The position numbers and the translations under genes were made by a program. Below are positions 1 through 59,911 of a stretch of 60,175 bases of DNA, one piece after another; position 1 is the stretch's first letter, and each line of letters starts with the position of its first letter. The notes under the pieces were generated by a model that saw only the letters and a program-made list of their open reading frames with translations, searched no databases and had not been told where the DNA came from. The DNA is from a virus (lineage: Duplodnaviria > Caudoviricetes): positions 1 through 60,175 of IMG/VR virus record IMGVR_UViG_3300030433_002650; one strand, 5' to 3'.

Positions 1-443
1 CTGGTAAAGCCAATGTCTTGCAGTGTGCGGCCTTTCATGTTACGTAGGTTACCAAACACACCGATGGTGCTGTTCTCGACATCGCTCAATACGATGCGCT
101 CGGATGGGTTGTCGGCGTTGTAAAGGAGGATAGGTATGTTACTCGAAGACAAAGTTTCCCCGTTAAAGTATGGAACGCCAGTATATTCGTGACCTGATTT
201 TTGTACGTGTGTGAGTTGTACGCCACCCTCGCTCTCAACAATCTGATAGCGGGTTTGGGGCATGACTTGTAGGTTACGGGTGTTGTTCTTCTCGACCGTA
301 ATCTTTGCTTTGTTTGACGTTTGCACGCTTATGCGACCATGATGAACAGCGTTATCGACAAAGACTGGCTTACGTACGTGGTCCATAACCTCGTTGGCAT
401 CAGTGTCATAACGCCCAGTGCTGGTGTTCTGTATGAGTGTCAT
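1..443 (-). CDS. 5' part of a gene running off the left edge, probably a tail/baseplate-region structural protein (MTLIQNTSTGRYDTDANEVMDHVRKPVFVDNAVHHG...)
   Basis: Translated by hand. The ATG at 443 overlaps the TGA of the upstream gene (ATGA), and the frame stays open to position 1. Not in the supplied ORF track. Function inferred from position only. Confidence 0.75.
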   Translation of the reverse strand, partial: MTLIQNTSTGRYDTDANEVMDHVRKPVFVDNAVHHGRISVQTSNKAKITVEKNNTRNLQVMPQTRYQIVESEGGVQLTHVQKSGHEYTGVPYFNGETLSSSNIPILLYNADNPSERIVLSDVENSTIGVFGNLRNMKGRTLQDIGFT

Positions 444-1021
444 TTACCACGTTTCCCCCATGTTGTAGGACGTTGTGCTCTCCAGTGAAGAGGTACTCTT
501 ACAAGTCGTTCAGGTGGTATGTCTTGCTGTACCCAAGCCTCCGGTCCCTCGTCTGTCCAATTTCTAAATTGACCCTGAACGTCTTTCAATGGCATCCTTA
601 CACCTATTGCAGTGCGAGTAGGTGTTCTACCTGTCCCACTGTGTTGAAATACCGATTGTCTGTTCATACCTGCGGGGTGAAACCATGTTCCTTTACCGCT
701 TAAATCAAATTGTTTGAATTTTCGATAGTTGTCTTTATTCTGGTCAAGTTCCGCACTAAGTGCCTCCCATTTGTGGGCTTCTTCAGACGCAGGGGTTGCT
801 TTCAATCCTTCCGTAATCAGTGATTCAGGAGATTGTGGTATTGTTTCATCAAACGTATCACCATACATTGCTCGATGGGCATCGAAATTATCATACCAGT
901 TTTGTGTAGGGTGATAACGTATCATGGTCACAGGACCGTAGGGACTCGGAAAATCAGGGTGAAACTCACCAAGTGTGGTTTGGCGTGTAGCCTTGAGAAA
1001 ACGCCATGCTTTGTCAAACAT
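440..1021 (-). CDS. Putative ADP-ribosyltransferase-fold protein with N-terminal AWRFLK leader and PIP-box-like motif
   Basis: MFDKAWRFLK-ATRQTTLGEF. ART-like strands VTMIRYH ... GKGTWF ... AIGVR ... EGPEAWVQQDIPPERLV. Paralogous to 1022..1525 and to part of 56178..57812. Confidence 0.55.
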   Translation of the reverse strand: MFDKAWRFLKATRQTTLGEFHPDFPSPYGPVTMIRYHPTQNWYDNFDAHRAMYGDTFDETIPQSPESLITEGLKATPASEEAHKWEALSAELDQNKDNYRKFKQFDLSGKGTWFHPAGMNRQSVFQHSGTGRTPTRTAIGVRMPLKDVQGQFRNWTDEGPEAWVQQDIPPERLVRVPLHWRAQRPTTWGKRGK

Positions 1022-1525
1022 TCAAGCCCACCCTAATTGTTGATTAGCCCATGCTTCGTATTCTTCCTCGTTCATGTTATCGGTCACACTTTTCGATGGT
1101 TGGGAAAACACAATGTTCTCCCAATCAATAGGTTTATCATGACTAATTAGTGCTTCTGAAAGAAGTCGGTCATTTGTTGGATTCCAACCTCGTCTACGTT
1201 GTACTCTACCATGATTCTCCATAGGTCCACGAAGACCAAGTACTGTTGGAGTACCTTCTACATCATGAAAATTTGCGTTAGCAAAAAACGATGCAGTTGC
1301 ATGTGGTTCAACGGTTTTCTTATCAGCCCACCACGTACCTTTTCCGCTTAGGTCAATTAAAGAATCAGGTTTTTGTGACCAATTTTCTTGACTTTGGGGA
1401 GCCGTGGACATTAGTGGTACACCTCTATAGCCACTTACAGGCTCCATACCGGGATAATCTTCTATGTAATTGTACAACTTCATTTGGCGAGAAGCCTTGA
1501 GAAAACGCCATGCCTTCTCAAACAC
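1022..1525 (-). CDS. Putative ADP-ribosyltransferase-fold protein, paralog of 440..1021
   Basis: GTG start. MFEKAWRFLK-ASRQMKLYNY, then VSGYRG ... DLSGKGTWW ... ATASFFA ... VLGLR ... SEALISHDKPIDWENIV. Shares DLSGKGTW with its neighbour. Confidence 0.55.
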   Translation of the reverse strand: MFEKAWRFLKASRQMKLYNYIEDYPGMEPVSGYRGVPLMSTAPQSQENWSQKPDSLIDLSGKGTWWADKKTVEPHATASFFANANFHDVEGTPTVLGLRGPMENHGRVQRRRGWNPTNDRLLSEALISHDKPIDWENIVFSQPSKSVTDNMNEEEYEAWANQQLGWA

Positions 1526-1534
1526 TTTTCCACC

Positions 1535-1873
1535 TCAACAGTTCCATCGCTTGAGAGCCGCACCCTTCGGAGTCAATTTGCCTTTCTTCGATGTTGGTCC
1601 TTTCATACCGCCCATTCTCGCACAGAATGATTTACGACGCTTGGCTTTCTTGCTACCGGGTTTGAGTTTGCTCGGCTTTGTTGTCACAGGTGGCTTGAGG
1701 TTTGCGCCAGTTTCACGTTTAAACTTCGCACGTCCTTTAGCGTTTAAACCGCCCTTTCTGTGATGTCGATTTGGATTGTAACCGTGAAACGGTTTGCTCT
1801 TTTTCTTTGCCTTCATCAATGCCATTGCATTTTCCATTGGTGTACAACAATCGCAAAAGTCGTATTCAATCAT
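1535..1873 (-). CDS. Small, highly basic protein (putative DNA-binding/internal virion protein)
   Basis: K/R-rich. GGLNAKGR...KRRKSFCARM...ALKRWNC resembles a basic marine-phage protein family (recalled as DUF6321-like, unverified). The N-terminus has CDCC plus PMENAMALMK-A. Confidence 0.7.
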   Translation of the reverse strand: MIEYDFCDCCTPMENAMALMKAKKKSKPFHGYNPNRHHRKGGLNAKGRAKFKRETGANLKPPVTTKPSKLKPGSKKAKRRKSFCARMGGMKGPTSKKGKLTPKGAALKRWNC

Positions 1874-4800
1874 GCGCCATCACCTGTGTGGTCTGATGTG
1901 TTGTAGGTTACATCACCTTTATGTCCTTTTGGATGAAGTGCCTGTGAGAATCGTGGCACTACGGAGAAGTCCATGCGTTTTGTTGTTTCATCACTGTCAA
2001 TGCGGGAGCGACGACGTGCCGCATCAGCACGATAGTGTTGGAGCGTGTTTTCGCTGATAACAATACGAGTAACTGCATTGTTGAGTTTTGAACTATCGAA
2101 TGACGCTTCACCGATACCAAGCAACTTCGGACCTTTGCTCACTGGTACAGATTCGTTAGCACTGATGTCCATAACGTACAAGGGTGCGTAAGGTGGATTG
2201 GTATCAGGATTGGTGCTACGGATGTAGTAGCCTGAACTTGCACGTCCGTTCTCCACCTCGTACATGTAAATACCATACTTACCACCAGCAGTAGCCGAGA
2301 AGTAGTTTGCACCGTATTGTGGGGATGATGAGTGCAGGTTGTTGTTTGGTCGGAACATCTCAACGTGTTGCTTGTCAAGCAATCGCACTGGTCTAAGCAT
2401 GAAAGTAACTTTCTTGTCGGTCATGTTTGTTTGACTGGTGCTTACGTGTACGTTTGTTTCGTACGGGTTTGATGTCTTGTTTGACCCGCTTATACCGCCC
2501 CAATCTTTGTCGCTGATAGGTGCAAGGAAGTTGCGAGTTTCAGCGAGGTATGTACCACCCATTGGGTTGAAGTTGGAGGTGTGGGTCAATCGCATTGCAC
2601 CACCCTGTGGCTGTCCAGCGAAGGTCAAACCAGTAAGGTCGTAATCAGCAAGTGTCTGTGAACCTGCGGTCAAACCACCCTCCATGACTACTCGCTGCCC
2701 TACGTTGCGGTCTGTGTGTAGGCTGTGTGCTTCTGTATTGATAGCAATGAGGTTGTCATCCACGCCTTCAATGTTCTCGCTGTCAATACCGATACGTGGG
2801 CTTGACCGACTGATAGCATCCTTGTGCGGTGTGTCACCAGTGAAGTCTTCTACACGGTCGCTTGCTACGGCTTCGGGTTTGAGCAGTCCATTTTCATCAA
2901 CACCCAATCGAGCACTGATACCACGCAGTACTTCATTGGGTTGCAGTACATCGTTACGTGGGCGCACGTAACCGTCTGATGTGTTTGGTTCAGCAGTGTG
3001 GTGCGAAAGAACGACCCCTGTGGCGTGATACGGCTCATCAAGGTCTGTGAGTACATCTTCGTTAAACATGGTTGGATAGCGTACGCCTCGACCGTTACCC
3101 ATGTCACCAACACGGTGCGGGTTGGTTGGGAAGAACACATCGACTGGATTTGCTGTATCGTTGTTGTTCACGTTGTTAAGCCGTCCCGCCATACGTGGGA
3201 AGTTTACATCAGTAGCCGTGAGGTCTGAACTGGTGAAATCAACAAGCGTCTTGAGATTGACCAGTGGGTTACCGCCATTCCATAGACGCTCATACGGAGT
3301 TAAGTCATTGGCTCGGTCATACTCGTAGACATCACTGCAATCCCAAGCAGGGCGTATACCAAAACCACGTACAGGATAGCGGCGTACATCTTCACCACGA
3401 GTGTTGCCCCACCAGTCTACGAGATAGTACTTTACTGCTTCATCTACCTTTGAGATGTTCTTACCAAGCGGGTCACCCCACCAGTCACGTATGACAGTAC
3501 TTGCATTGCGTAGTACACGCACTGGGCAACCGAACGCTCGTGTCATACGCATACCGTTACTGTAGCGTACACGCCATTCAGGTTTGTCTACACCGAGCAT
3601 AGCGGAGAAGTTGGTTTGTCGCTCCATGATACCAACATATGTGTTCGGATAAGTTTCATTAGCAAGGCTTGAACCACCAGCGTATGTCCACGTTTGCGTT
3701 TCTTGCTGTACAAGTGGTCCATGTTGATACCCTGCAATAGTGTTCGACGCTGTAATGTCGGCTTCTCGATAAGCACGAGCACCGTACATAGCCCACTGTG
3801 GTTTGTTGTAGGGTTGTCGCAATCCAAAGCGGTAACCAAACGGTCGAGGTCGTGTAGGGTCTGTAATTGAATCGTACGATGTTTTCGTAATACCACTGCT
3901 TACTGTATATGAACCATCATCGTCTTGGTCTTCCCATACTGGTCCGTCGGATGTGTAGTCTTGCGGATAATCCCACGCAGTACTCACGTACCCGTACCCA
4001 TCAAGACGACTGGTAAGCGGTCCACCACGGCTACCACACGGCCAGTAGTGGTTCAGCATCACATCAGTACCACCTTGAGCCGTGTAATCACTATGTAAAG
4101 CACTGGCTGATACAGGTTCACCATCGCCGTAAACGTATATTGTACTTCCATTTGTAAGATGTGTTGTTGTTTTATTGACGTTTATCACTGTACCGTTGTC
4201 ACCGGGAGATACCACGATAAACGTTTCATCCTCGATTTGAATCACAGCACCACTTACTAATGGTGGTGATAGAGCAGTTGTGATTGTTTGACCAAACGTA
4301 GAAACAATAGTTCGGTCACCACTTGGTAATTTTGTCACTGGCTGAATTGGTCTTGGTGTTTTAATTGCAAAAGTAAACGGACCTAAACTATTGTAGTACG
4401 TTGCATCGTGGTAATGAATGGTTTCATAGTGTTCAGGTAGGCTGTTCAGTGGTTTACGATTAACTGCCCTATCACCAGTTGGACTCAACCACGTACGACT
4501 TGCATCTGAATAGAATGTATGCGGTCGGCCAAGATTTGGATTCCATAGACACAAATACGCATCGGCCATGTGGAGGCTGTTCGTATCACGACTACCCTGT
4601 AGTAATTGAGGCAACATGCGTGTAAAAATGCTTGACTTCGATTCCTTCATCAATTTACCAGCAGGGCGGAAGTCATACGCACGAGTCAAACGAATCTTCG
4701 TTCCAACAGTGAGATTACTGGTGAAGTTTGACGATGCAGTAATGGTGAATCTATACGGTTTATTCATGTACGTTGCGTCATTACCACTACGTTCCGTATA

Positions 4801-7800
4801 CGTATGTGTGCGTCGAATACCGTCAGCATCGGTGTATTCCAACTTCATACCGTAGTATGGGACTTTGGGGAAACCTCTTGCGTCATCGACAGTGATAAGC
4901 GTTGAAGACACCGACTTAACTACAGCAACAGGTGATAGGCTGATGTTTTCCAGTATAGTCGAATAGAAGTCAGGGTAATTGGATGGATAACCTGCAAGAG
5001 TCAATTGACAAGCAATGCTTCCAGCACCAGCACGTAAGAACTCGTAGTAATTGTCAATTCTGTGCCATGTCAAATGACGGAATCCTACTGCTGATGAATC
5101 TTCAGGACTTATTTTGTGTACAATAGACCACCACGGTATGTTGGTTGTAAAGCCGGGTGTAGCATCAACAAACATACCGGGGTGATACGGTAGGCTTCGT
5201 CGTGTAAATGCAGGTGCTTCTGTACCTTGTACACCCAACGCATTGTACAGCAATAGCGGAGGTATGTTTGCCAGTTGTCCACCATAATCAGGGTCATGGT
5301 CAAGCATAACCTCGTTGATGAATACTTCACACCCACGTACATCAGCCATGGTTGCCTCGGCCAAGACCAAGCCAAGTCCACCTGTGGCTGAATCAGGCTC
5401 ACGTATACCGATAACCAATGCTACTTGTTGTCCAGTTAATTCATTGACTGAACCATCAGGCAGTCCAGTGGCACTGCCGTTTTCATGGTAGCCGTAAAAC
5501 TGTGACTTGTGTACGTTAGGTTGGATGATGATTTGGTAAGCACCAACTTCTGATGGGTCAGGGAAGTGATGCTTGAGTGTGTATGTAGCACCTGCTTCCA
5601 ATACAATAGTGTGACCACCTTTCGAGTTTACAACACCCGCTTGACCCTTTGAAGCCAATACCCCATAACCATCGTACTTGACTTTGGTTTCAAACATGAG
5701 TGTGAACCCACCACCGTGAATATCACTCGGACCACTTGGTGTAGCAGTCATTGCACCGAATGTAATCATGGGGTCATAGACTGGTAATTTGCGTTGGGTA
5801 TCTGCTGGTAAGTTCGACCTATCAGTATCGAGAGCAGTGCTTTGAATAAGGTCTTGCTCAAGATTCTTTTGCGTTGCTGAACGGTCGGCTCGGTGCTTAA
5901 AGTACAATCCTTGATACGCAGGGTGCGCCCAATGACCGGGTAACATAGCCTGTGTAGCATTAACAAAGTGATGACCCATACGTGGAATTGCCATTGGTGT
6001 CAGGCGTGCTTTCTTGTATGCATCGTAACACAATACATTCGGTCCACCATGTCCAGTCACATACATTGAGTGAGCCATATCAGGACTGTTACCACTCACT
6101 TCCGCATGGTCACGAATTCGACGTGCCGCAAAGAATCGGTTGCTACCAGCAGGTACGTAGTATGAAGGCACGACACTGAATGACGTTATACTACTCTTAG
6201 CAACAATAGCATCGAATGCCGAGTCACCTACACAACCAGTGAACGTGTTGGTCGATATACCAGTGAACGAAGCAACACCACTTTCACCAGTTGCGTCATT
6301 GTATATGCGTAAAAATCGACGTGTACCGCCATCATCTTTCTGTGAGTCACCATAAGCGTCACGATACAACGTCGTATTGATGGTTGTATTCACTGTTAAA
6401 GTAGTACCTGAATACGATGAAGCGGTGAGTGCATTGTTCGTGATACCGTTGGCGTGTGTGTAGAATGTAGGATAGCGATGCGTATGCGAATTACCGTTCT
6501 TGGTGATATGGAAGAACAAGGCTCGGTCATGCAATTCGTACGATGTCTTCAGTGGTGCATTGTTGGTTGCCGACTTCCAACCTTTTCGTGTCATATCGGG
6601 GAAGGCTTCACCTACGGAGTTTTGACTGATATGGTCGTATTCGTGGTCACTAAATGTCGGTCCTAAGCGTGGACCATCTGTAGCGTCTGTAAAGATGCCT
6701 TCTATGCCCGTTTCGATGTTTGGACGTAGCATACCGCCCGTACCCATTGTTTCGTTTTGATAGGCTTGTAGACGGTCAAATCCGCTACGTACAATGATGT
6801 TACCGGGTATAGCATCAGCATCAGGTAGTTGAATCTTCAAGTTTGGCTCAACACCGCTTCCCGCTTCCGATGGTGCTAACCCTTCGGCTGTACGGTCTGA
6901 AATTTGTTTGAATGAGCGTATGATTGTACCAAACGGTGAACCACCTTCGATTGAATGCTCTTGGCCAGTGTCGTCTACAACAGTCATGGCTAAGAATTGC
7001 AACTCTTCATTTGGTATCTCAAGTACGTTACGCAACTCATCGGGATGTCGAGCCGCAATTTGTGGGTGACTCAACTCTTGTGCCTGTATGATTGGATACA
7101 TTGCCGAGTTAGTTGTTTCAAATGAGAACCGACAATTACCAAACAATTTTTCACCAGTAGTATAGGCACTGCCTCCCGATACACGAGTGATAAATGGTAC
7201 TGCGCCAAGACCACGAGCATTGACAGCAGGGAGTGATAAATTACCACCATCCATACGCTTCCATACTACGTTTTCAACGGAGAAATTCTTTACTGGTGAA
7301 TGTTCAGCAAGTTGGAATGCATTCAAATCGCCTTCCCAAAATTTCCGCCCCGTAGAATATCTTGAGGTGATTGATGAATCTGTAGTTGATGTGATGTATT
7401 TGCGGCGTAAGTTACGTTCTACACCCGTTATGGTTTCAAGACGGAAAGAACCGGGACTCTCATCAAGGTCGTAAAACAAATCTCCCGTTTCGTTAAAACA
7501 AGGTTCAGCGTTAAACAGTGTCGAGTCATCGGCTAAGGGCGCACCAAAATTGTACGCACTTGGATAAGTATCTGTAGTATGTGCAAACCCACTTGCAATC
7601 AATGCCTCAATATTAGGTCCAGCGTTAGCAGGTGCGGTAAATCGTTCAGGATTGTGTATACGCTCATCCCAACGTGTAGTACCTGCAAATGTGATGGCAG
7701 TCGCAGGCGTTACGCTATCGACATTGACCTTTGATGATACAGAAAGCCAATCACCTGTTGCTTTGATACCGTCCCTGTCATGCTTTGCAACAAGTGCCAT

Positions 7801-10800
7801 TTCGCTCTCATATGATATGACAACAAATGCCCGACTGTACACACCTTGTGGCATATGGAGATTGCGTGGTAGCGCAAATGTATCATCATCAATATCACGA
7901 TAAGTTACTGGTGATGCCCCTAAGTTCGTATCTTCAGCACTATCAAATGTATATCCTGTATAGTAAGCATTAGATGAAGCAAGACTATACTTCCACGTAT
8001 ACGGTGTGGTTATTACTGTTTCAGCATTACTTTGATTGTTAATACGTTGAGATGCTTCAGGACTAAATTGTATTGGATTCGAGTGTGCAAGATGTCCAAA
8101 AGTCGTCATGCAACTGTTGCTTGAACCGTATGGTGAGAACCCAAGCATCGGATGCCATGCACCCAAACCTGCACCATACTGCTCCGAACCTACTTTGAGA
8201 GAATTAAGGTACGAATAACGCTCCCCTGCCCATCCTACAGCACCTACAGGGCGTGTACGGTCAATAGCATCAACAACACCGCTAAAATGCACCTGCGTCA
8301 TGTGGTCACGAGTTGAATCGTTTTCATTGTTAAAACGATGAACACCCGCTTTTGACCACACATACACAGCAGTAGGATTGCCTCCGCTATAATCAGGGTG
8401 TGAAGTACCTGCTGAATATGCACTTCTTGCAACATCGTCATACGTACGTAGGCTTTCCATTAGTGGTAAACTCGATGAACGATTTGGCGCAAGTAAGAAA
8501 TGCACTTTGTAACTACTACTTCCGCTATCATAAACAACTTCTCGACTATGATACGGCGCAAACGTAGGTATGTCGCCTGAACCAACATTTGTCGTACCAC
8601 CATCAGGTGTACGGAGCCATCCACATGCGGGTATTTGTTCAAGCGTTGCTTGAGATGCCCCTGAAATACTTGCTTTCAAAATTGTTTTAGACGACGTAAT
8701 TGACGCAGCAGTACCGTCAATTGTGTAAGAATCAAATGACATCTCGACCCATCCGTAGCGGTCTTGTCGCATTGCGTTACCCATTGATGGTGCAAACGTA
8801 CCACCCATCGCTTTGATAGCACTGCTTCCGGGGAACTCATTAATGGATTGACCGAGTATGGTTGCTAACTCTTCACCGTTTTGACAACGTGTTGCATCGA
8901 CTACAATGAACTCATCTTCATACAATGATGCTACATTTTCACTGGTTACACCTGTAACGAAATTGTTTGCAAGTTTTCCTGATACACGGAATGCAGTTGG
9001 GTGTACATCATTGTGTCCTATTTTGACTTTGTAATCGCTGATGTCGTGCGGTGGGTTGAATGACAACTGGTTGTCCATCCAAGAACCACCGGGGTGATAG
9101 CCACCGTCCATATGGAAGCACAAATCAGCACCCATGGCGATACCGTAGTACATAGCACCTACAAACTTGTACGGGTGGGCTTTTCGATAATCTTCAATGT
9201 TTGACGTTGTTACACGTACACTGTTTGTGAAATGTTCACCATAGTGCGAACCATGTTCAGGACGTTGTATAAGACCAGCACCAGTAGTTGTACCAATGTT
9301 GGGTACACCTTGTGCTGGTGACCAGTTCCATGTTGTATTCCAATGGAATACTTGACGTGCTGATTGATACGTACTTGACGGCGGTCCGTATTTATCGTCG
9401 GAGTTTTTGATTTCATTTGGTAAATTTTTGTTAGCAGGTACTTTGCTCCATGAATTACCAGTTGTGACAACATAACCGGGGTGAGGCTGTTCATCCGAAT
9501 CTACTGTCGTCATTTCCGTAAACGGGAAGGCTTGACCGGGACCAAAGATAATGTACGTCGTGTGTGTTTCGCCCACATCTGTGTCTTTGTATCGAGCGTT
9601 TGGATTAGCCACACGCAAGACAAGTGGTGATGGTTTTTGTTGTACAATACCTGCGGTGTATCTCGCCTGTACATGCGCTGGCGTATTAACGTGAGCCGCA
9701 TGAGCACCACCCGCTAAATCAGGAGAAAGGACATTGTTACGATTGGCTACTGGGTGCGACAGACTACCACGATGTTGATTCAATAACGGAGTAGCAGGGA
9801 AGAATGCAAGTAAAGCGTTACAGTCTACAATAGCAAACGAAGTAGAAATCTCGTTAGCATTCTGTATACCTGCTGTACCTGTTGGTCCATTTGAATAAGG
9901 ATGAGTATAGAACGATGAATAATCGTTTTCTGTACCATCATTGATGTCCAGTACTACTCCACTAAAACCACCACCAAAGTACAGTGGTACTGAATGGTCG
10001 TTGCTGTCTTTTGCACCCCTGAAATATACAATTGGTTCTGCATCTACAGCACCAAATGAACGACGACCGCCTATTTTTTGATTACCAAACCGCATCAATA
10101 TATGGTCTTCATTGCTGAAATTTGCAGTGAAATGGTCTACCCAATCTTGGTTTGCAAAATCATCTCTTCCCCACTCAACCCGTTGAAGAGAAAACAGATT
10201 TTGTACTGATGTTAATAGTGCATATTGTTTGTCTGTGAAGTAAAATCGCTTTTGTTCACCAAAAGAATGCTCTTTATCAAACGTATCAATTGAGGTGGCT
10301 TCTTGACCTGAAGGCACAAGCGCATGAGTAATACCGTTATCTGTAGTTGTATGGTAAAAGTATTTTTGGCTGTGCTGATAATGGTTGAATAACAACATTT
10401 CGTTGTTGAGTGCAGGTAAGATATGGTCACCGCTTGTTGATGTGAATGTGATACCCTTGAGGTTCTTTCGCCATGCATCGACTGGTACAGGGTCGTTAAA
10501 CGAATCGACAAGGATAGGCGTAGGGGTGTTGGCGTGATACCCTCGTCCTTTTGTACGAATTTGCAGTACTGTTCTTGGAAGATACCCTGCATCAATCTGT
10601 CGATTCTTGTCAAGCAGTGCATCGCTTATCGGTTGATGTACAGCATCGGATGATGTACTAAATTCGTAAATACCAGTAGCATCTTTTGCTAATGTTTCGT
10701 ACTCCCCGTACTCAAGATGAGCCGCTTGTATAGCATAATCGGTGTGTAGTTTTGAAGAGAACATGCGTGAAATTGGTGTAGCACCACGTTGTGGGTTGTG

Positions 10801-13800
10801 CGAGCGTACAATAATTGCATCCTCGGCTACGCCCCATTCACCGAGCGTACGACCGTCACAGGCATACAAATGACGTACATCAACTGCTATTCCATCTTCT
10901 TGATTCGGATTAGGGTGATTGATGGCTACGTTGGTAGCGTACGCAAGTACTTCATCGGTAACCAGTGTTGTCCAGTTAATACGTGATGATAGTAACACAC
11001 GCATGGTGTTGTCCGAAGCGTGAGGTTGTGTCCTTGTTGCATCTATTACAGTTCCACTACTGACGTAGTGAGATGATACAAAGGATTCTCCACGTACCCC
11101 ATAAAAGATGTGTGTACCCGTTATATCATCCACTGTACGTGATTCGTAAGATAGTGCATTTCCAACAAATCCATCAGCAGTTGTACCTGTAAATGGGTCA
11201 TGTAAATGTATGACACCATTTGAGTGAGGGTAACCAAGATAACCAAGTAAATCAGGATGGTTTGCCAATGGTGAAGACGATGCGCTTGTGTTGAATGGTG
11301 CTTCAAACACAACAGTGAGTGTGTTTGCTGTACCATCCCATGTTACCTCCGCATCAACTCCAGCATCAGGAGCGTACATACCTCTCCATCGGTTACCACG
11401 CCATTTAGAAAGTTGAAGTCCTGATACATCTAAGCGACCAGTAGGGTCACCCCAACCGAGCATATGACCACCAAGAGTAAAACCGCCCATAGAAACATCA
11501 TCATCATTGATGTGAATAATAACTTCATCTTCTAAGGTAGAAGGCAATGTAGTATTTTCATCGGAAAACGCTTGACCGAATTTACGGTAGACATAACGTA
11601 CACCATATCCACGACCTCGATGGTCTGTGAATCTAAACCCATACAATGGTGTATCGCCTATTGCGTCTTCTGTAGTTTCATTTGGATTAACATGCGCTGT
11701 GTATGAAGCAATAGCAGTCGGGTCATTGTCACCAAACTTAATGGCTTCACCGTACTTGTAATCAAATCGTTCATCACCTCTTCGACCAAAACCATGCTTA
11801 CCTGCATCGGGTGCAAAACCGGGTACTCCTGATGCTACAAGACCTCCAAAGTTGATACGACCAATCGCTTGCTTACCTGCACGCAATCCTTCAACAAGAT
11901 TAGTTGAAAGACCTTGAACTTCAAACGATTCGTCTGATACCGTATTGTGATTGATGCCACCAATACGTGCCGACACATTGCGGTTTTCTGATGCTGTGTT
12001 TGATTTACGATTACCAACATCGTGATTGTTTGTGAATGGCTCATCGGGTTCTTCTTGGAGCACGTATTCACGCAGTGTTGTAACAGGAGCAAACGGGCGA
12101 CCATGCTTGTTAAGAGGCATTGGTGCTGGATGCATGTTCTCGCCCAATGTTTCATCAGGCTGACACCAAAAGTTACGGAATCGCCCACCGTGTCCAATAA
12201 GGAATTGCGGCTTGTAGTTCGATTGACCCTTACTGTTGTCAAGCCATACACAGAAATTACGACCTGATGCACCGGGTACGGTGGAGTGAATGACAATTGA
12301 GAAGCCCTCGTTGCCATTCATGTCTTCAACAACACGTCCAATGTGAGCACGTACATACCCCATGTGGCTACCACGGTCGTGAGTATCGAATGCTTCTTCT
12401 ACAAACCACCACGGTGCAGGGTCATAAGTTGAACCCGTAGCGGCGAAATCAGCATTGATGTGTGCGCTACTGGGGTCTTTTGCATCAGATGTAACATCCT
12501 GTCGTACACCAATACGTGTGAGGTCAAGACTTTCGCTTTCACCGGGGTATTGTTGAGATGGACGACGGGCATGAGTTCGACCGTTCTTTGCCCCACCTTG
12601 ATTGATTAAACGTACAATTTCACGAGTAGCGGCCTCAATATCCGTCACACCCTCTTTGACACCAACTTCACCGCAATCAATCACCATACGACGTACGAAA
12701 TCCATTTCTGTCCAATGTGGTAAATGCTCCAAGCGGTCTTCTTCATGACTTGTTAAGTCGAGTGTAGTAGAGCGTATGCCCTTCAAGCCCAAGAATGCTG
12801 AAATACAACGTGTACCATCAGGTGTGTCGAACAGTGTACTTGCATCACGGAAACTGTATAATGATGGGTCTTTGGACAACCTGTGTAGTTTCAAAGCCTC
12901 TACGAATCTATCTCGGCTTGGTAATCGAGAAATCTTATGCTTCTCATTCGCCCAATACGTTGAAGCCACAGCAGGTTCAACACGAGGCAACGCATTATCA
13001 CTTACAGCGTAGATGTTACTATTGTAACCATACATTAGTCCTGAATGTACAAAGTGACCGTGACCTTTGCCCATCAACTGTTTGTTGTTTCCTCTTGTTG
13101 TAGGGTCTTCAATCAAGAAATTTGCATCACTATTCGCTATATCGTGTGCATAGGCTGATTCGATAAACTTTGATTGTTGCGTGCTACGCAGGTATTTGTT
13201 TTCGCTTGGGAATCCATTGGCTACGTCAATTTGTGTTGTAAAGTAATGCGGTGCACCACCGTTGTGAGATACCAAGAAACGGTCGAGTTTTGCTACACCA
13301 CCTGCGTGTACAATGTCACGACCAAACCCAATGTTCGGTGTAGCCGCACTTGATTGAACCTGCATATGTAGGTCATGGAATGCAATAAATTCACGGTCAT
13401 GGGCTACATCGTAGAGCAATACACGAGCATGACCTTCGGTAGCAAGATACGGGTCTACGTAGGCTACTCTCGGAACGTCTGTATACGAACTACCAAGCAA
13501 TGATTCGTAATTCAACTCAATTGTTTTATTGATGTGTTGAGCCAAATTTTGCGCCGTTTCCAAGCACGTATTTCCAATCAAGAAATTCTCAAGAGGTATT
13601 GAATCACGAGGACGACTGGCAAGTGAACCACGACCACCGTTGAAACCTTTCCATACAAGATGCTCATTGTAAACACCACGACTCTTACAGAACAGACCTT
13701 CCACCGCATGTGGATTGTTCATGGTCATGTTCATCCATACGGTATCACCGTTTCGCATACCACCTGCGGCGAATGGATTAAGCCATGTGGCGTTCAATAT

Positions 13801-16800
13801 ACCATCATGGTCTTCAGGGATGATACTATCTACTGATACACGAATCTTGTCACCTACTGCAACAGCACAAGCATTGTTTGCTGTTAGTGTAATGATTGTG
13901 TTTGTCGTACCACCGACGACATCAGAAACAACCGAAGATACCTTACCAAGATAATCAATGTCACTTCCCGATATATCATCAATGTACAACTCATCGTCTT
14001 TGCGTATATTCAATCCTATTGTATTTGATGATGCAAGCCTATCCGATGCAGTAGTAGTAATCTCAATTGTCGTAGTAGTATCGCTCGAAGCCGCTACAGC
14101 AACAGTCCATTGTTCAGATGTATCAGGAAGGAATGTCAATGCTGTACGCTCAACAGTAATTGCCGTAGAAGCGGATGCGGCTGAATGTAATGCACGACCG
14201 ACTCGCTTGAGTTTCAGTGTAGCGTTTTCAAGCCCAGTAAGTGACGTACTTGCTGATTGACAATATACAACGTTAGGTTGGTCTGTAACGCCACCCAAAT
14301 ACGAAGAAATTCTACCTAAGTATATGAGTTCATGAGTAGTTCCATCCGATAGTACAATTTCTGCAACGTACATCAAATCTCCTTCACTCACACTAAGCAC
14401 GTTGGAAGAATCCAGTGTGTATTCATTTAATTCAGGAAAAGTGCTTGCGTCTTCAAGTGTGATTGAGTACAATCCACTGCTGTTTGATACCGATTTTATG
14501 ATTGATTGTGCTACGCCCGACTGCACTCGTGGAGCATGAGGATTGACAAGTGGACCTGCTTTGATTTCAATTGCACTTACGTACTGTCGAAGACCATAGT
14601 CAAGATTACCGCCTTGTGTTTTGACGTTGGCATTGTCGTAATAGTACGGTGAACGTGCTTCATAATCAGAAGAAGGTGTTTCATTGTCAGATGCTATTGG
14701 AAGTAAATTTTCACTGCGGTAGCCCTGTGCAATAAAGAGAGCAGTTTGCGGCACTGCGCCTTCAAAGAAACCCTTAGCGTACGAACCTGATATGACACCA
14801 CTCGTTCCAGTTTCATGCTCATCAACACGAAGATAACCATCGCTACTGGGGTCATTACGGTACACACACCACATGCCGTTTGCCAAGAATGCACGTCGAT
14901 AACGAGGTAGTTTCTTCATGTTGCTATATTCAAACACCGATGTATCAACAGGCGGGAAAAGCGATGGATGCGACACATAAATTTTGTAGAATTTACCGCT
15001 TGAATCGTACTCTACTTTTGTAATTGTTGTAGAGGAAACGTAGTTTTGATTGTTGATGTTGTAGGAATAGGCTGATGATGCAGTACGGTCGGCTACCTGA
15101 ACATCGTCGGCACGTCGTCCAACAGGTGTAGGGTTCCAAGTGTGCGCTGTATACGTAGCATCAATGTGTATTTTCATGCTGTTGTCAGGTCCGGGGAATA
15201 CGTTTTCGTTCTCATGGTCAAAAAATTGCTGTGGGAAAAACGGTATCTCAACCATTGCACGAGTGCTTGAGTATTGTGAACCCAACTGATAATCATGCGT
15301 CACTCCGTCCATTGACTGGAATAAACGGTCATTGACTGTGCTACCGTCTTGAACAAGTGAATCATCGTTGAAATTATCATCGTTGTAAATAGATTCGGAA
15401 ATCGCTTCCGTAACACTGTTTCCTGAAGTAGCAGTACCTCTTAGTAAACCTGTTTCTTTGACCCAAGCGTAAAAACTTGGTACGGCAGTTCCGTCACTTG
15501 TTAAGAAACGGCCTTCACTCACAGCGTCAGCATCATTTTTGAAAACAAACCCAACCCCAGTTTTTGCTTCATAAAGCGCACTTGCACCATCAGCAAGATA
15601 GACTCGGCCAACCTTTGGAAAACAATACGTTCCCCATGAAACCAAATCGGGCGACTGATTGTTCAGTGGTCGAATTGTAATAGAATCGGTAACACCGCTT
15701 GTTGTGCTGTTTGTAGCAACAACTTCTGTTGCCTGTACAGCACACATTCGCCGTGTAGAGCCGGGTAGACGCATTAGCGGAGAAGGGTCGAAGGTGGGCT
15801 TGGTATTGACCGCCCCTTGACCGGGACCGCCAAGCGTGACAGTAACGACAGGCGCATTGGGTTCAATCTCTTTGACGACGTGAGAATCAGGCGAACCACT
15901 ACCAAGGACATTGACGTTTTGCGATAGTGCGCTTTCAGCAATGCCGTGAATAGTTACCTCGGTGGTATGCATATTACTGTCACCATCGACCTTTTCAGCA
16001 ATGCTACGAACTCGTCCACGAGTCATAAGTTCAAGCAATGTAAATTCTGATTGTTGTATACTTGTCATAGTATTCAACTTGTTCAATTGATTCGTGCGAT
16101 TTCGATTCGTAGGATGAATAAACAATCTTCCTTTATTTTCATCCAATGTAAGTGTATTGTCAATAACATCAAACATTTCAAAGGTATGACTTTTCAAAGT
16201 CATTGGTGAAATATCAAATTCCCCAGTGCTTGTTTTATCAGCGATTGGTTGTAATACACCATTTGTAACAGTATTGCTTTCCAAACCTGTGCTTGGATTC
16301 AATAAAATTTTATGATAAACGGATTCATGTACAGCGTTATTGTGTGATTTATTGACAACCTTCGGTGCTGATGCAGGGGTAGCAGTGGTATCGTTTACAG
16401 GAGTGTAATTGACAGGACAAGTAGAAAAATCAAGTTCGGCATCATTTTCCTCCCCGCCTGTGCTGTCGCCCAGTAATGAATGTGGATTTTGTAGTGCTGT
16501 GCTTAATGTAGTGTCCGTGGCAGTTACATCAATGTAGCCACCGGGTGAAAAGAGCACTGTGTTTGCAAGGTCACTGGTAATCACATCAATGACACGAGTA
16601 CCACTACCTAAGTCAAAAGACCCTGCTGGTACAGTTTTTTCAACCATGAGCATCGGACCACTAATCCCCATGCTTGCACCTGTCAGGTCAATTGCATTGT
16701 AGTGAATTTCGACAAACGGTGCAAGATTATGAGAGGACTGTAATGCAGGTACTTTGAGTAACGCAATGCGAGATTCTTTTTCAGGTCGTAAATGGTATAA

Positions 16801-26630: not shown

Positions 26631-26813
26631 TCACTTCCCATAACAGAAATCACAGTTATCGCAAAAATTTGGGTCTTTATCCAATCTTTGACCGCTTGCA
26701 AGATATGCTTCTGCTTTTGGACAAATTTTGATGTTTTGATGTTCCAAATAACGACCTTCGCTATCGTACGGACCTTGATTTTTCAAAAACAACCATGCTT
26801 GATTAAACGCCAT
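26631..26813 (-). CDS. Small Cys-containing protein with AWxFLK leader
   Basis: MAFNQAWLFLK-NQ at the N-terminus, CDNCDFC at the C-terminus, GAGGGGAG SD. Confidence 0.6.
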   Translation of the reverse strand: MAFNQAWLFLKNQGPYDSEGRYLEHQNIKICPKAEAYLASGQRLDKDPNFCDNCDFCYGK

Positions 26814-29158: not shown

Positions 29159-30259
29159 TCACTTCAAATCCCGAATGGAACCGTGACCTCCAAAGAAAGT
29201 AGTCCAAAGTTCTCCCATTGTGCGGTACATACCTTCTTGTCCAAGACGGTTGATGGCGAATGGGTCGCCAGTTTCAATTCCGGACTCGAAATACTGCGTT
29301 GGGATTGCAGTGGAGAAGTAAAGGTAGTCAGTGTCGAGGAAGTACATACGACTTAGAACGTCAGGTTGTACATCCTTGGAAGGAATGATTGGGACACCGT
29401 TGTATGTAGCAACGATGAAACCTGCCTCAATACCGGGTACACCCTTTACACCATTGTAGGTAGGGGTGACACGCTTCTCTTCCATGAATCGCTGTTGCGA
29501 CTGGAGGAGTTGCTGTAGACGCATGAGTGTGTCGTATCCAGTAAGGATAACCTTCGGGTTACCACCACGAGTCCAAATCTTTTGGAAGAGGTCGTCAAGG
29601 TGGTCGAGGGAGAGCACACGGTCTGTACCACTGTTCTCGTTGTGTTCAGCGAGGGACCAAGAGTTTGCACTTCGGTCGATGCTGTACATGTCCTCGTTTG
29701 CGGAGGCTGATGCACCAGTGGTAACACGGTCGAGGGACTCGAAATCGTTCCCTGCAACAGTTCCCTTGTCAGCAGTCATCATCTTGTTGATGTGTTCAGC
29801 GTGGTGCTTACCCATCTCTTCCTTGAGGATTGCTCGAATGTCGCCAAGTCCATCGTCCTTGTCAGCAAGGAACATTGCGGTTTCGCTCATGTCGAATGTG
29901 TGGACAACCGTCTTTGGCTTGGCCGCAATGTGCTGGAAGGTAGGCTTGGTTGTGTCAGGTAGTGTAGCGTTTTCAGCAACACCGCCGCCCTTTGCGAAGG
30001 AAGGTCGTGCGGTGATGACTCGCCATCCACTGCGCTCCCAAGGTCGCTTTGGTAGGATGGAGAAAGCGTTGAACTCTTGGTTCAACTGGCTCCAAACCTT
30101 GCGTCCGTAGATTGCTTGGTATGTACCTGCGGTCGTAGACAGCATAGGTGCGTCAGCCTTGAGCAACTCGCTACCGGAGTAGGAGTAACCCATGGCGTTA
30201 CCTGCGCCGTAGTAATATCGTTCCATGTCTGTAATGCTTCGGATGTAATCTCTTGCCAT
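29159..30259 (-). CDS. Major capsid protein (HK97 fold)
   Basis: Downstream of protease/scaffold. GGGVAENATLP (E-loop), AAKPKTVVHTFDMSE, YNGVPIIPSKDV...MYFLDTDYL, YRTMGEL...HGSIRDLK. ELLK-ADAP is a candidate maturation site. Strong AGGAG SD. Confidence 0.9.
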   Translation of the reverse strand: MARDYIRSITDMERYYYGAGNAMGYSYSGSELLKADAPMLSTTAGTYQAIYGRKVWSQLNQEFNAFSILPKRPWERSGWRVITARPSFAKGGGVAENATLPDTTKPTFQHIAAKPKTVVHTFDMSETAMFLADKDDGLGDIRAILKEEMGKHHAEHINKMMTADKGTVAGNDFESLDRVTTGASASANEDMYSIDRSANSWSLAEHNENSGTDRVLSLDHLDDLFQKIWTRGGNPKVILTGYDTLMRLQQLLQSQQRFMEEKRVTPTYNGVKGVPGIEAGFIVATYNGVPIIPSKDVQPDVLSRMYFLDTDYLYFSTAIPTQYFESGIETGDPFAINRLGQEGMYRTMGELWTTFFGGHGSIRDLK

Positions 30260-30277
30260 ATTCTTCAACTCCTAATT

Positions 30278-31657
30278 TCAGGCTCCCCTCAACGTCTTGT
30301 TTGCAAGGCTGTGAACCTCATCCCATGACATGTTACCCAAGTCTTGGGTTGAAGGAACTTCAACAGTTGCGGAGGAAACAGACTTTGCGATGGTGTGGCT
30401 CTCGGTGCTCAAGTTATCAATGCGCTCGGAGAGGTCACCAATTGACTTGAGGACTTCTGCAAGAGGTCCACGAGCATCAAAGGTGCTTCGTTCTGCTTCT
30501 TGCTTCTCGATTTCGAGTTCCTTTGCAAGTCGCTGGGAAAAGTTTGCTTCCAAGTTGTTTCGGAAGTTTTGTTCAAGAGATGCGGCCTTGTAGACTGCGT
30601 ATGCATTCTCGATGTCGGCTTGGGAAACGTTGCCTTCATTGAGGTAACCCTTAGCCACTGAAACTGGTCCAAGAGCACCTGCTGGTTGCTTGCCACCACC
30701 AGAGGTGAGGGCTGAAAGAGCACCAGTGGAAGGAGAACCGTTTTCCTGTCCTCGTCCACGGACTTGACCAGCAAAGTAGTCAGCACCATCAACGGAATCA
30801 GGGTTGTCAAATCCACCAAGTTGAGCCTTAGCCAAGTCGTCAAAGTGTGCACGAGCACTACCAATATCGACTCCAGCCGACTTCAATGTGTCTTCCATCC
30901 AGTTGAGGTATTCGGATGTAATAACATCACCAAATTCTTCACCTTTCATGTACGCCATTTTGTCGTCATCTTTCTTTTCTTCTTTCATGTCTTCACCATC
31001 TTTCTTTTCTTCTTTTGGCTCGTCATCTTTCTTATCCTTGATGTGCTCACGGAGTTGAGGAGGAATTTCTCCCTTTTCCATTGCATCAAGTCGGGCTTCC
31101 AATCGTTCCATAACGCTGTTCAAATCAACTTCACTTGTCATATTTGTGTCCTCCTTTAGTATACTGAATTGTGCTTCAGGATTGATGCCCTTCTCACAAA
31201 TAGTAATTTCATGCAATTCCATCTTTGAAATCTCTTGGTAGTCGCCTTTGATGCTGTCAGACTTTCGCACTCGCTTGAATGCTTGTCCTCCAATTGAGAA
31301 TCCACGAAGGTTACCCTTGCGAATCTCGGCGGCTACTTCACGAGCCTTCTCAATGTCGTTGCGGAGTTGAACAACAACAAACATGCCAGTGTCGTCACAT
31401 TCGGACTTCCACATTCGGCCATTGCTGTCTACGTAAGAATCCAAGACTTCACCGACTTGGATGTTTGAGTGAGCCAGTTGTACATTGCGGTACTTGTCAC
31501 TCTTCATGAACCCGTCAAATGCATCCTTTAGAGCACCACGAGTAATAAGGTCGCCTTGCTTATCGACCATTTCGACGCTTGCATAACCTGCAACAACCAA
31601 GTCAGACCCACTCTTGAGGAGAGTGATGTCCATATTGGGTCGCTTTAGCGTCAGCAT
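30278..31657 (-). CDS. Prohead (maturation) protease, HK97-type, fused to C-terminal scaffolding domain
   Basis: VVAGYASVEMVDKQGDLI, LAH (catalytic His), LRGFSIGG (catalytic Ser) and LHEITICEKGINPEA, followed by a coiled-coil/acidic scaffold region. Confidence 0.9.
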   Translation of the reverse strand: MLTLKRPNMDITLLKSGSDLVVAGYASVEMVDKQGDLITRGALKDAFDGFMKSDKYRNVQLAHSNIQVGEVLDSYVDSNGRMWKSECDDTGMFVVVQLRNDIEKAREVAAEIRKGNLRGFSIGGQAFKRVRKSDSIKGDYQEISKMELHEITICEKGINPEAQFSILKEDTNMTSEVDLNSVMERLEARLDAMEKGEIPPQLREHIKDKKDDEPKEEKKDGEDMKEEKKDDDKMAYMKGEEFGDVITSEYLNWMEDTLKSAGVDIGSARAHFDDLAKAQLGGFDNPDSVDGADYFAGQVRGRGQENGSPSTGALSALTSGGGKQPAGALGPVSVAKGYLNEGNVSQADIENAYAVYKAASLEQNFRNNLEANFSQRLAKELEIEKQEAERSTFDARGPLAEVLKSIGDLSERIDNLSTESHTIAKSVSSATVEVPSTQDLGNMSWDEVHSLANKTLRGA

Positions 31658-37440: not shown

Positions 37441-37453
37441 ACTTTCACCGCCA

Positions 37454-38388: not shown

Positions 38389-38399
38389 AGCCATAAAAC

Positions 38400-56181: not shown

Positions 56182-57812
56182 CCAAATAGTTCTGATAATT
56201 CTTCAAATTGCGTCAATTTTTTGTTGGTTGGATAACTGGTATTAAATCTGTGGTTGAACAATTCAATGAGAGCATCCTTTGTATGCGGTGGTGCGTTTGC
56301 CAGCGCAGCCATCGGGTCACCCCATGTTTGGGGTAAGGTTAGGTCACGTAGTGTAAGTGCATCTCCTGTATTGGGTCTGTCCCACCAATCACTTGCTCCT
56401 AAACGTCGTATCAAGCCAAGTTTTCTTCCTAATTGACGTTCTCTCGATTCACCACTATTAAAGTAATTACGGTCTTCCTCTTCGATTGCTTCTAAAAGGC
56501 GAATTTTTTCATCGTTTGTAAGCACAGCCGGCATTCCATGCCTATCGACCATATCTTCAAATTCAGGGGGTGCATATTGCATAAACGGTAAATGGTCACG
56601 AATGTAGGCAAATTTTTGATTGCGTGATATTGTATCATCTTTTTCACGACCTATGGCTTGACGAAAATCCTGTGCTGTTTTTGGTCGAAAGAAGTTTCTT
56701 ATGTCGTTTAGTGAAAGAAAGTTTGTTTTACTACGTCCATCTCCTCTTATCATATTCTTATACGAATCATTGTATCGAAACGGTACAAGCCGTTCAGGGG
56801 CTATACGACTGTGTACAATGGCTTCTGTTGCACCTTCTTTTGCCTCACCTGCTGGACGTGCTTGGAATATATCGCCACTTGGTGCACCAAATCCACGAAC
56901 ACCAATAAGCGCATTTGTATCGTGGGTTGTAACTGCCCTGTCTAAATCAGCAACGTACGGTGTAGTCAAAAAGTACCCACTTTGGAAGTGTTCAAGAGGT
57001 GGGTTTTGTGATTGCACAAGCATAGGGCGACGACCCGTATTTCGACTTTCATATGATTCATTGTTATAGTTTGGAAGCGGTATCAATCCACCACCTGTTT
57101 GTGCCATGCCGCCCATAATATCACGATTGCTTGCACGACGTACAGCCGTCACAGGGGCTACTGCGCCTTCACGCACCAATCCCGTTTTAGGGTCAAGCCA
57201 ATCTTCGGTATGGTATGAGGGAAAATGTTCAGGCAACGTAGTTTGACGGCCAAAGTAATCACGGAATTGTGGAGTATTGCGTAAACCTTCGAGCAATGTT
57301 TCACTTCTTGGTTGTTCAGGAGTAGAATCTGGTCTTGGGCCTTTTAAACGACCAAATTTATTTTGTATTTTTGTATATGAAACTGGATTGATATTACGCA
57401 TTATTTCTTCTTCTGTAAGTTCAGCCAATCTTTTTGGTACATTGGAGACATTTCTTTTGCTACGCATATCTTGAATGTATTGCTCTACAATATCTTCAGG
57501 GTTTTCTGTTTTGGCTCGCAACTCGTCAAGATGCATGTTTAATTGCTGTTCAGCCGACAGTGGAGAAACTTCGGGTAAATCAAAAGGTTTCTGAAACGTA
57601 ATAGGTGGTGAATCGGAAAAAGTTTGCATGTTTTCGTAAGTATCAAAGTCACTAAGTTTACTTTGAGTTGTCGCAGGTATGCTTTCGTTTTGTTTAAATT
57701 GAAAATACGGGTCTTGTGCTCTTGACGTTGGAACTTCAGGCAAACTTACCGGATAAAAGTCGCTAAGACGAGTCTGTTGCTTGAGAACAAGCACAGGGTT
57801 CGCTCCGACCAT
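56178..57812 (-). CDS. Multi-PIP-box protein with central ADP-ribosyltransferase-like domain
   Basis: PVLVLK-QQTRLSDFY, TQSKLSDF, RQTTLPEHF and NKKLTQF. PVTAVRR...SGYFLTT...ALIGVR...EGATEAIVHSRIAPERLV aligns with 440..1021. Confidence 0.55.
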   Translation of the reverse strand: MVGANPVLVLKQQTRLSDFYPVSLPEVPTSRAQDPYFQFKQNESIPATTQSKLSDFDTYENMQTFSDSPPITFQKPFDLPEVSPLSAEQQLNMHLDELRAKTENPEDIVEQYIQDMRSKRNVSNVPKRLAELTEEEIMRNINPVSYTKIQNKFGRLKGPRPDSTPEQPRSETLLEGLRNTPQFRDYFGRQTTLPEHFPSYHTEDWLDPKTGLVREGAVAPVTAVRRASNRDIMGGMAQTGGGLIPLPNYNNESYESRNTGRRPMLVQSQNPPLEHFQSGYFLTTPYVADLDRAVTTHDTNALIGVRGFGAPSGDIFQARPAGEAKEGATEAIVHSRIAPERLVPFRYNDSYKNMIRGDGRSKTNFLSLNDIRNFFRPKTAQDFRQAIGREKDDTISRNQKFAYIRDHLPFMQYAPPEFEDMVDRHGMPAVLTNDEKIRLLEAIEEEDRNYFNSGESRERQLGRKLGLIRRLGASDWWDRPNTGDALTLRDLTLPQTWGDPMAALANAPPHTKDALIELFNHRFNTSYPTNKKLTQFEELSELFG

Positions 57813-59248: not shown

Positions 59249-59252
59249 TTGT

Positions 59253-59834: not shown

Positions 59835-59911
59835 GGAGTTGGGAGGTAGTTTCACCATAAAAATTTTGTTTGAAATTTTTTTTCTCGGAAAGGTGTGCGT
59901 GACTAAAAGAA

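Follow-up and report, generated by a model that had tools for sequence, protein, structure and literature searches.

Why does a tailed virus carry, at the distal end of its virion genes, two small adjacent proteins that open with the same short peptide, continue into a motif resembling those that bind sliding clamps, and end in a domain reminiscent of ADP-ribosyltransferases (ARTs)? The question is posed by genes A and B of IMG/VR virus record IMGVR_UViG_3300030433_002650, a linear record of 60,175 bases with a completeness estimate of 56%, all of which was analyzed and is called the window here. Judged by its sequences, the family to which both genes belong is large, unannotated and virus-only, and is found in magrovirus-like archaeal tailed viruses. 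Each unit of the family has three parts: a start tag (xPMDxAWxLLK), an R-Q-x-x-L-x-x-aromatic box and a small domain. We tentatively favor the reading that A and B are tagged, clamp-docked and delivered ART-like effectors, a mechanism to which, taken as a whole, we give slightly less than an even chance.

An earlier note, written from the letters of this DNA, had placed both open reading frames (ORFs) within 440-1525; both proved real where it had put them, and both lie on the minus strand. Their layout is as follows, with PIP denoting the PCNA-interacting peptide motif and pLDDT the predicted local distance difference test of the structure models.

440..1021, minus strand: gene A, 193 residues, start ATG; tag, PIP-like box and diverged ART-like domain; 16 full-length homologues, AlphaFold2 model with pLDDT 75.5
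989..1021, minus strand: A residues 1-11, start tag MFDKAWRFLKA; low-pLDDT helix at residues 2-11
959..985, minus strand: A residues 13-21, RQTTLGEFH, PIP-like box, from conservation and co-fold contacts
491..931, minus strand: A residues 31-177, ART-like body with Y-H-P-T strand, GLK helix, and GTWF, GVR, EAWV and IPPERLV strands, from model secondary structure and alignment to Y-H-G-T relatives
1022..1525, minus strand: gene B, 167 residues, start GTG; tag, PIP-like box and a more diverged body (Y-R-G, GTWW, GLRG, EALI, ENIV); 21 homologues, model pLDDT 54
1493..1525, minus strand: B residues 1-11, start tag MFEKAWRFLKA, from the window motif scan
1463..1489, minus strand: B residues 13-21, RQMKLYNYI, PIP-like box; M15-E22 nearly invariant in 22 sequences

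The stop codon of B abuts the start of A, and the stop of A overlaps the following start (ATGA); A, B and the downstream gene are therefore coupled. The GTG start of B is preceded, four bases upstream, by GGTGG. All of the shared motifs listed in the earlier note are present and in the same order. Both N-termini read MF[DE]KAWRFLKA[TS]RQ, running on from the glutamine as QTTLGEF in A versus QMKLYNY in B, and a pairwise alignment matches DLSGKGTW[FW], [IL]G[VL]R, EA[WL][VI] and I..E..[LI]V. AWRFLK and (DL)SGKGTW are confined to these two genes in a six-frame scan of the window. A BLASTP alignment of A with B is limited to the first 38 residues, 19 of which are identical (E 3e-8), whereas a comparison of the A and B family profiles extends over 129 columns (probability 97.4%, E 1e-11). 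When the N-terminal module is left out, the bodies give a weak profile match (10%, E 3e-3).

A combined A+B profile searched against 1.84 billion proteins (cut-off E<=1e-3, representatives taken at 50% identity) recovered 158 family representatives; the conservation, Pfam and alignment counts given below cover 142 representatives, and the cassette counts cover 186 family proteins. Word-indexed searches returned 16 full-length homologues of A, together with five proteins that share only its first 30-40 residues and have different bodies, and 21 homologues of B. Relatives are encoded by 101 of 142 candidate stretches in IMG/VR. No family member was found in GenBank phage records (tblastn, E<=0.01), and a pattern scan of GTDB, one genome per species, gave 24 pattern matches, none of which was confirmed as a family member. 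Tag and box together form a cassette, of which there are 141 copies in 138 of the 186 family proteins; 37 of the 141 are internal, each following [SG]EPMDxAxxLLK. Domains fused to family members among the representatives include DUF5872, HD_4, GNAT, PolyA_pol (a nucleotidyltransferase) and DUF6321 (Pfam). Most representatives carry R-Q-T-[ET]-L-G-E-F, then Y-H-G-T 21 residues on. Five related large genomes each hold two to three family copies, and three of the five have an adjacent pair as in the window; among 80 fetched loci, adjacent family members occur in 17.

The reading of the box as a PIP motif gains support from its conservation. Each of R, Q and L is kept in 99% of the 141 cassettes, while 84% have F, Y or W at the final position (frequencies F 0.53, Y 0.22, W 0.09 and H 0.14); the cassette pattern permitted K, E and I/V/M alternatives, so these figures were not forced by the search. 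In the unbiased alignment of the 142 representatives, only the Q and L columns are at least 90% conserved. Residues 1-45 of A, with their own alignment, were co-folded with PCNA of Thermoplasma acidophilum (PCNA_THEAC, Swiss-Prot), which served without an alignment as a stand-in because no viral clamp and no Poseidoniales host genome was found. The co-fold scored 0.84 as compared to 0.29 for the best of three controls (range 0-0.29), the mark used being one that 58 of 80 solved complexes attain, as do 2 of 110 mismatched pairs. Contact agreement among runs was at least 71%, and the partner pLDDT was at least 46. Residues 10-21 and 23-26 of A contact PCNA residues 39, 42-46, 118-123, 218-219 and 239-246, which we take to be the pocket, interdomain loop and C-terminal tail used by PIP peptides in solved complexes. 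The co-fold model thus puts the box in the canonical PIP pocket, and the N-terminal peptide of A, for which the earlier note had proposed docking on the host sliding clamp, passes its controls in this model with the Thermoplasma clamp.

Clamp binding is further favored because other tagged proteins of the window bear similar boxes at free termini (QTRLSDFY and QTSLDDFGQ). They belong to the following two genes.

56178..57812, minus strand: 544-residue protein whose N-terminus holds a canonical QxxLxxFY box (LKQQTRLSDFY); a third domain copy, internal, is weakly matched (hhalign 65%, E 6e-5)
58451..59296, minus strand: 281-residue tagged protein with C-terminal PIP-like box KQTSLDDFGQ, kept in the related genome G001

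The 281-residue protein ends in KQTSLDDFGQ directly before its stop codon, and its homologue in G001, a related record of 101,688 bases (94% complete) that is syntenic with the window, ends in NQTSLNDFGQ; the C-terminus is the usual place, and this the usual form, for an archaeal PIP box. The 544-residue ORF starts PVLVLKQQTRLSDFY, another box (QSKLSDF) is found at its residue 50, and its internal RQTTLPEHF ... LIGVRG ... IAPERLV appears to be a very diverged third copy of the domain. An 84-residue ORF (53092-53346, minus strand) also has a canonical-looking PIP pattern, QNTLDNYY, at residue 23.

Several observations weigh against clamp binding. The earlier note's PIP-like motif stands as regards the conserved Q and L and the pocket occupied in the co-fold, but it is incomplete at its end: compared to Q-x-x-[LIVM]-x-x-[FYW]-[FYW], both QTTLGEFH of A and QMKLYNYI of B fit seven positions, and the eighth is a non-aromatic His or Ile. 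The clamp in the co-fold was only a Thermoplasma stand-in without an alignment, and since PIP-PCNA is a textbook complex, the segment of A looks like a PIP box and its pass may reflect only likeness to solved PIP complexes. For PIP-like patterns of the generic kind, the window shows no enrichment (20 versus 14.1 +/- 3.7 expected); a narrow pattern is enriched, but was picked after the data were seen. PCNA_N and PCNA_C (Pfam) were found neither in the window nor in the five related genomes. A sliding clamp and clamp loader are reported for magroviruses (PMC5434244). Where a sliding clamp would be expected, adjoining the family-B polymerase (PolB) gene of G001, lies a conserved 253-residue ORF (76035-76796, minus strand; L086:16035-16796) with 52 homologues that carry neither names nor Pfam domains. 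It has no Pfam match, neither its single sequence nor its profile matches PDB, and its hhalign probability against three archaeal PCNAs is 0.8%.

The box also keeps a constant distance of 21 residues to the first strand, and the HPDFPSxYGPVT that comes after it is strongly conserved; it may thus belong to the domain and not be a free linear motif. This leads to a rival explanation in which the box extends the enzyme at its N-terminus as an integral part, perhaps supplying an Arg/Gln that binds phosphate or substrate and so completes the active site in the manner of the N-terminal lobe of Tpt1, and the proteins act free of the clamp, with phosphate ends of RNA or DNA, or proteins, as their substrates. 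Residues 21-40 of the A model, with pLDDT 84-86, agree with such an arrangement, as do Arg13, His35 and Arg92, which are invariant in the Y-H-G-T relatives and, we presume, recall the Arg/His set of Tpt1, the top PDB match of the Y-H-G-T profile. On the other hand, conservation falls precisely on the Q, the L and the aromatic, at i, i+3 and i+6, the box itself has low pLDDT in the monomer model (48-51 over residues 1-20 and 51 over residues 11-20), the co-fold seats it in the PIP pocket with controls at 0-0.29, and the boxes of the other tagged proteins lie at free termini. We consider the enzyme-extension explanation unlikely, though it deserves to be kept in view, and retain clamp docking as the preferred reading of the box.

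What, then, would be docked? The link to ARTs runs through the family's short Y-H-G-T members. A profile of 36 of these, searched against PDB, matches Tpt1/KptA best (E 5e-4), followed by exotoxin A, diphtheria toxin and PARP16/15/14/1, and 59 of the 60 proteins among the matches listed have the ART fold. Compared with an alignment of 30 archaeal Tpt1 sequences, this profile scores 81% (E 1.3e-5). Gene A aligns to the Y-H-G-T relatives by hhalign at 99.9% over its whole length and at 95% with the body only (E 3.8e-8, 87 columns). For B the whole-length value is 98.2%. In the alignment, Y-H-G-T of the relatives corresponds to Y-H-P-T of A and Y-R-G of B, and their G-V-Y-x-[ST] to G-T-W-[FW]; A, B and the relatives have G-[VIL]-R and I-P-P-E-x-L-V in common. 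The order of strands and helices in A fits beta1-alpha-beta2-alpha-beta3-6, in a model with a pLDDT of 75.5 and a predicted template modeling score of 0.74. Two further searches point the same way more faintly: Pfam matches among the 142 representatives were to PARP (6), DUF3990 (1) and ART-PolyVal (1), all weak (best E-values 5.2e-5 to 1.3e-3), and the nearest named ESM Atlas clusters to A carry PARP, Tox-ART-HYD1 and Arr-ms (0.87-0.88), which is a lead only. Taken together, the alignments suggest that A is probably a diverged ART-superfamily domain and that B is possibly one. The assignment of A is indirect, because it rests on the ART match of the Y-H-G-T relatives together with the link from the A body to them.

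The earlier note's identification of both bodies as ARTs is therefore upheld for A by this chain of comparisons, but neither protein matches an ART directly and the link of B is weak. Much of the evidence here counts against an ART assignment. No ART family match to A or B was found in Pfam, PHROGs or PDB sequences, and both score below 1% against an alignment of the 30 archaeal Tpt1 sequences. Foldseek with the A model gave 0 of 236 PDB matches at E<=0.001 (best E 0.4) and no ART among the matches listed, so the fold search that the earlier note had pointed to did not bear it out; against BFVD, the best match is an uncharacterized phage protein (E 9e-3), and a putative Tpt1 of phage PaBG ranks eighth (E 0.23). 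The B model is poor (pLDDT 54), its structure search returned no match, ESM Atlas gave no usable match for it, and its body alone aligns to the Y-H-G-T relatives at a weak 18.7%. The second strand is aromatic, G-T-W-F in A and G-T-W-W in B, and has neither the Tyr of G-x-G-x-Y nor an S-T-S motif. E161 of A and E124 of B are invariant in their own families and lie within a predicted strand, yet the Y-H-G-T relatives have no conserved Glu at the late strand. The first-strand Arg that the earlier note expected is found in B, as Arg34 of Y-R-G (at least 90% conserved), but not in A, which has His37 in Y-H-P-T; of 16 family-A rows, 12 keep this His and the other four have Gln instead, and the Gly of H-G-T is Pro in A. 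Among the 30 archaeal Tpt1 sequences (L174-L203), 18 have Y-Y-P-[AT]-[TS] or F-Y-P-T at the site where H-G-T is usual for the family, one has L-Y-H-G-T, and 11 lie outside the search pattern. Pro thus occupies the Gly position in bona fide Tpt1, and Y-H-P-T of A therefore has a parallel.

The same observations bear on a second rival, in which A and B are pseudo-enzymes that have lost catalysis and serve as pure clamp binders, blocking or re-routing the partners of host PCNA for shut-off or hijack, or are plain structural or internal virion proteins. The non-canonical first- and second-strand motifs, the loss of the His in 4 of 16 family-A rows, the want of a direct ART match and the position of the genes within the structural block would all fit. 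The bodies, however, keep strongly conserved polar residues (R142, R153, E158 and E161 in A; H75, S79, R99, R110, E124 and H129 in B), which argue for a ligand-binding or catalytic site. We judge this explanation to be improbable, a shade more so than that of an enzyme extension, and the reading of A and B as ART-like, possibly active domains is kept below.

How such proteins might reach the host cell is suggested by their first 11 residues. The tag is amphipathic and follows x-P-[MF]-[DE]-x-A-[WFM]-x-x-L-K. The strict pattern occurs 10 times in eight ORFs of the virion block versus 0.03 expected (at most one in 500 shuffles), and the same set of proteins is tagged in G001. The carriers are A, B, a DUF6321 protein, a 60-residue ORF, two ORFs at 58-60 kb (one of them the 281-residue protein listed above), a 628-residue ORF with one internal copy and a 659-residue ORF with three. 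The leader noted earlier on A and B is thus confirmed, but it is not special to them and instead is a general tag of the virion block.

1535..1873, minus strand: 112-residue gene upstream of B with a DUF6321 domain (Pfam E 4.7e-19) and tag TPMENAMALMKA at residues 12-23
26631..26813, minus strand: 60-residue tagged protein, MAFNQAWLFLK, from the tag scan
47537..49423, minus strand: 628-residue protein with one internal tag, SEPMDGAWSSLLK, from the tag scan
54202..56181, minus strand: 659-residue multi-module protein with three internal tags (SEPMDLAxxxLLK), from the tag scan
59253..59858, minus strand: 201-residue tagged protein, SFDIAWIMLK at residues 12-21, from the tag scan

The 659-residue protein has at least four modules separated by the tag, and the last of these resembles a DUF5872-type tail that is fused to relatives elsewhere.

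The L-L-K at the end of the tag is about three-fold over-represented in the window (18 versus 5.3 +/- 2.2 expected). The capsid protein, the protease, a 1932-residue ORF and three further head-block ORFs have it at a distance of 9-37 residues from their N-termini.

29159..30268, minus strand: major capsid protein (PHROG 7.3e-61), with GSELLK|ADAP at residues 32-41
30278..31657, minus strand: prohead protease (PHROG head maturation protease, 3.9e-13), its own N-terminus carrying NMDITLLK|SGSD

Minus-strand ORFs with L-L-K near the N-terminus lie at 29159-30268, 30278-31657, 31696-37494, 38056-38777 and 45375-47540. The capsid protein of HVTV-1 has S-K|A-D aligned at the L-L-K site of the window's capsid protein. 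L-L-K is, on sequence grounds, a candidate prohead-protease site. Its enrichment, and its place close to the starts of the capsid protein, protease and 1932-residue ORF, suggest that the tag is probably a procapsid-loading and processing signal, with predicted cleavage after L-L-K by the prohead protease. A role as a secretion signal was ruled out; the tag is also found inside long proteins and on protease and capsid-block proteins.

The gene order of the window places A and B in a late setting. Almost all long ORFs of the window are on the minus strand. In transcription order, the virion block starts with several unannotated ORFs, followed by large terminase and portal (Pfam), the 1932-residue ORF, and then the prohead protease and major capsid protein (PHROGs). 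Further on are a weak tail-tube match, a tape-measure-like ORF, a 5573-residue ORF and the 112-residue DUF6321 protein, and the block ends with B (1022-1525), A (440-1021) and another ORF that leaves the window edge. The earlier note's insertion in the tail operon is therefore loosely right, in that the pair is at the distal end of a co-directional virion block, past the tube-like, tape-measure-like and 5573-residue ORFs.

1870..18591, minus strand: 5573-residue ORF just upstream of the DUF6321 gene, at the end of the tail/virion block; no family match

Both halves of this ORF were negative in Pfam, its counterpart in G001 is 5576 residues long, and it occupies the place expected for tail fiber or baseplate genes. 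The 1932-residue ORF (31696-37494, minus strand), between portal and protease, has as its sole Pfam hint a sub-threshold match to ATP-dependent DNA ligase (E 0.006, residues 1517-1599).

The virus itself is likely a magrovirus-like virus of marine archaea, an assignment made because of the affinity of its capsid protein, its synteny with G001, and the chaperonin and PolB of that genome. By tblastn the capsid protein matches archaeal viruses only (11 of 11 records, best HVTV-1 at 36.9%), and magroviruses have a capsid protein of the same archaeal-virus affinity according to Philosof et al. (PMC5434244). In G001 the chaperonin and PolB are behind the virion block on the opposite strand. A Poseidoniales host is plausible given a capsid protein nearest to those of haloarchaeal viruses; a search with the viral chaperonin for a Poseidoniales host genome returned 80 loci from many archaeal groups, none of them named Poseidoniales. 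Elsewhere in G001 (90542-92308, locus L087), five consecutive small ORFs that each start MIDTDKYEGH form a tandem paralogue array.

The genomic setting also raises a third rival, in which A and B are unpackaged replication or repair accessory factors of the viral replisome, recruited by a viral clamp for tasks such as Tpt1-type end processing or RNA/DNA repair. PolB is encoded in five of five related genomes, the magroviral sliding clamp and clamp loader reported in PMC5434244 would provide the partner, and Tpt1 is the nearest solved family. Against this, the genes belong to the late virion block, the replication module being on the other strand, the tag is common to A, B and the head-module proteins, and the fused relatives resemble multi-effector proteins. 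Of the explanations considered, we give this one the least credence and hold it to be very improbable.

In the mechanism that we prefer, A and B would be made late, alongside the structural genes, and the tag would direct them into the procapsid or head, where the prohead protease would trim them after L-L-K. The trimmed proteins would enter the host together with the viral DNA, and the R-Q-x-x-L-x-x-[FYW] box would act as a PIP box, binding PCNA clamps loaded on DNA. The small ART-superfamily domain, nearest to Tpt1/KptA and the His-Tyr-Glu clade, would then use NAD+ to ADP-ribosylate a clamp-proximal target, which may be a replisome protein or a nucleic-acid end. A minimal alternative is that the proteins would merely occupy the partner pocket of the clamp. 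One could also envision a whole class of head-loaded cassette effectors, each made of a cleavable tag, a PIP box and an enzyme, in which trimming would expose an N-terminal PIP box and the ART-like enzyme would ride host or viral PCNA, ADP-ribosylating DNA ends or replisome proteins at the fork; stated so fully, the proposal seems to us rather unlikely.

The box may aim these proteins at the sliding clamp, and their domain is related to NAD+-using transferases. If the preferred mechanism is true, archaeal viruses attack or hijack the PCNA hub by means of enzymes, and the theme of packaged ARTs known from phages is extended to archaea. The fuller cassette proposal, if true, would make this the first ART effector system tethered to a clamp, and no injected-effector system would have been described for an archaeal virus before it. 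The tag, if it is the mark of capsid-loaded proteins, would be a sequence signature for the virion cargo of uncultured viruses. The literature searched, supplements aside, has no mention of genes of this architecture, in line with the earlier note, and describes no injected effector for marine archaeal tailed viruses. The main text of the magrovirus study PMC5434244 does not mention ADP-ribosylation, and that of PMC11706807 mentions neither ADP-ribosylation nor PARP or PCNA. In its accessible text, a 2022 survey of viral NAD+ systems refers to archaea twice and to neither PCNA nor a sliding clamp.

Among the known systems that we compared, none is viral and has all three of a tag shared between modules, a clamp box and an ART-like domain. 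The Thermococcales inhibitor of PCNA (TIP), from an archaeal mobile element, is reportedly a small PCNA-binding protein with a non-canonical motif; it would thus resemble A and B in being a mobile-element protein aimed at archaeal PCNA, and differ from them in having no enzyme domain. Human PARP10 has both an ART-type catalytic domain and a PIP box, and is reported to interact with PCNA (bioRxiv 10.1101/337220). It is, however, a eukaryotic cellular protein of quite different architecture, with no sign of common descent of the combination, and unlike in PARP10, the box of the A/B family directly precedes the domain.

Tpt1/KptA shares with the Y-H-G-T relatives the pattern YHGT ... GL ... V[YH].[ST] ... 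A. The match spans about 45-55 residues, the N-terminal winged-helix lobe is missing from the family, and A and B themselves have no direct match to Tpt1/KptA (<1%). KptA is described as absent or rare in archaeal viruses (PMC9503650).

The likeness to Alt and the internal proteins of phage T4 is that an ART-type domain is encoded among late genes and that a short N-terminal peptide is common to several head-module proteins. The T4 internal proteins and Alt bear a cleaved capsid-targeting peptide. Alt is packaged in the head and injected (PMC5512222), whereas packaging and cleavage of A and B are predicted from their sequences. A and B also differ from Alt in having a probable archaeal host, no sequence match to Alt and an additional clamp-binding-like box, and while Alt is of the R-S-E type, the family domain is closer to Tpt1 and the H-Y-E clade. 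A further comparison is with the polyvalent proteins of phages and plasmids that contain ART domains (Iyer et al. 2017, PMC5512222), described in a study that mentions archaea only three times. One family representative matches the Pfam domain ART-PolyVal (E 1.3e-3). A and B are single-module proteins, and what parts the modules of their family is a conserved tag, not a zincin peptidase domain. Relatives of A and B do resemble polyvalent proteins in fusing the domain to HD_4, GNAT, nucleotidyltransferase and DUF5872 modules, and for both groups the prediction is that the proteins are delivered along with the DNA.

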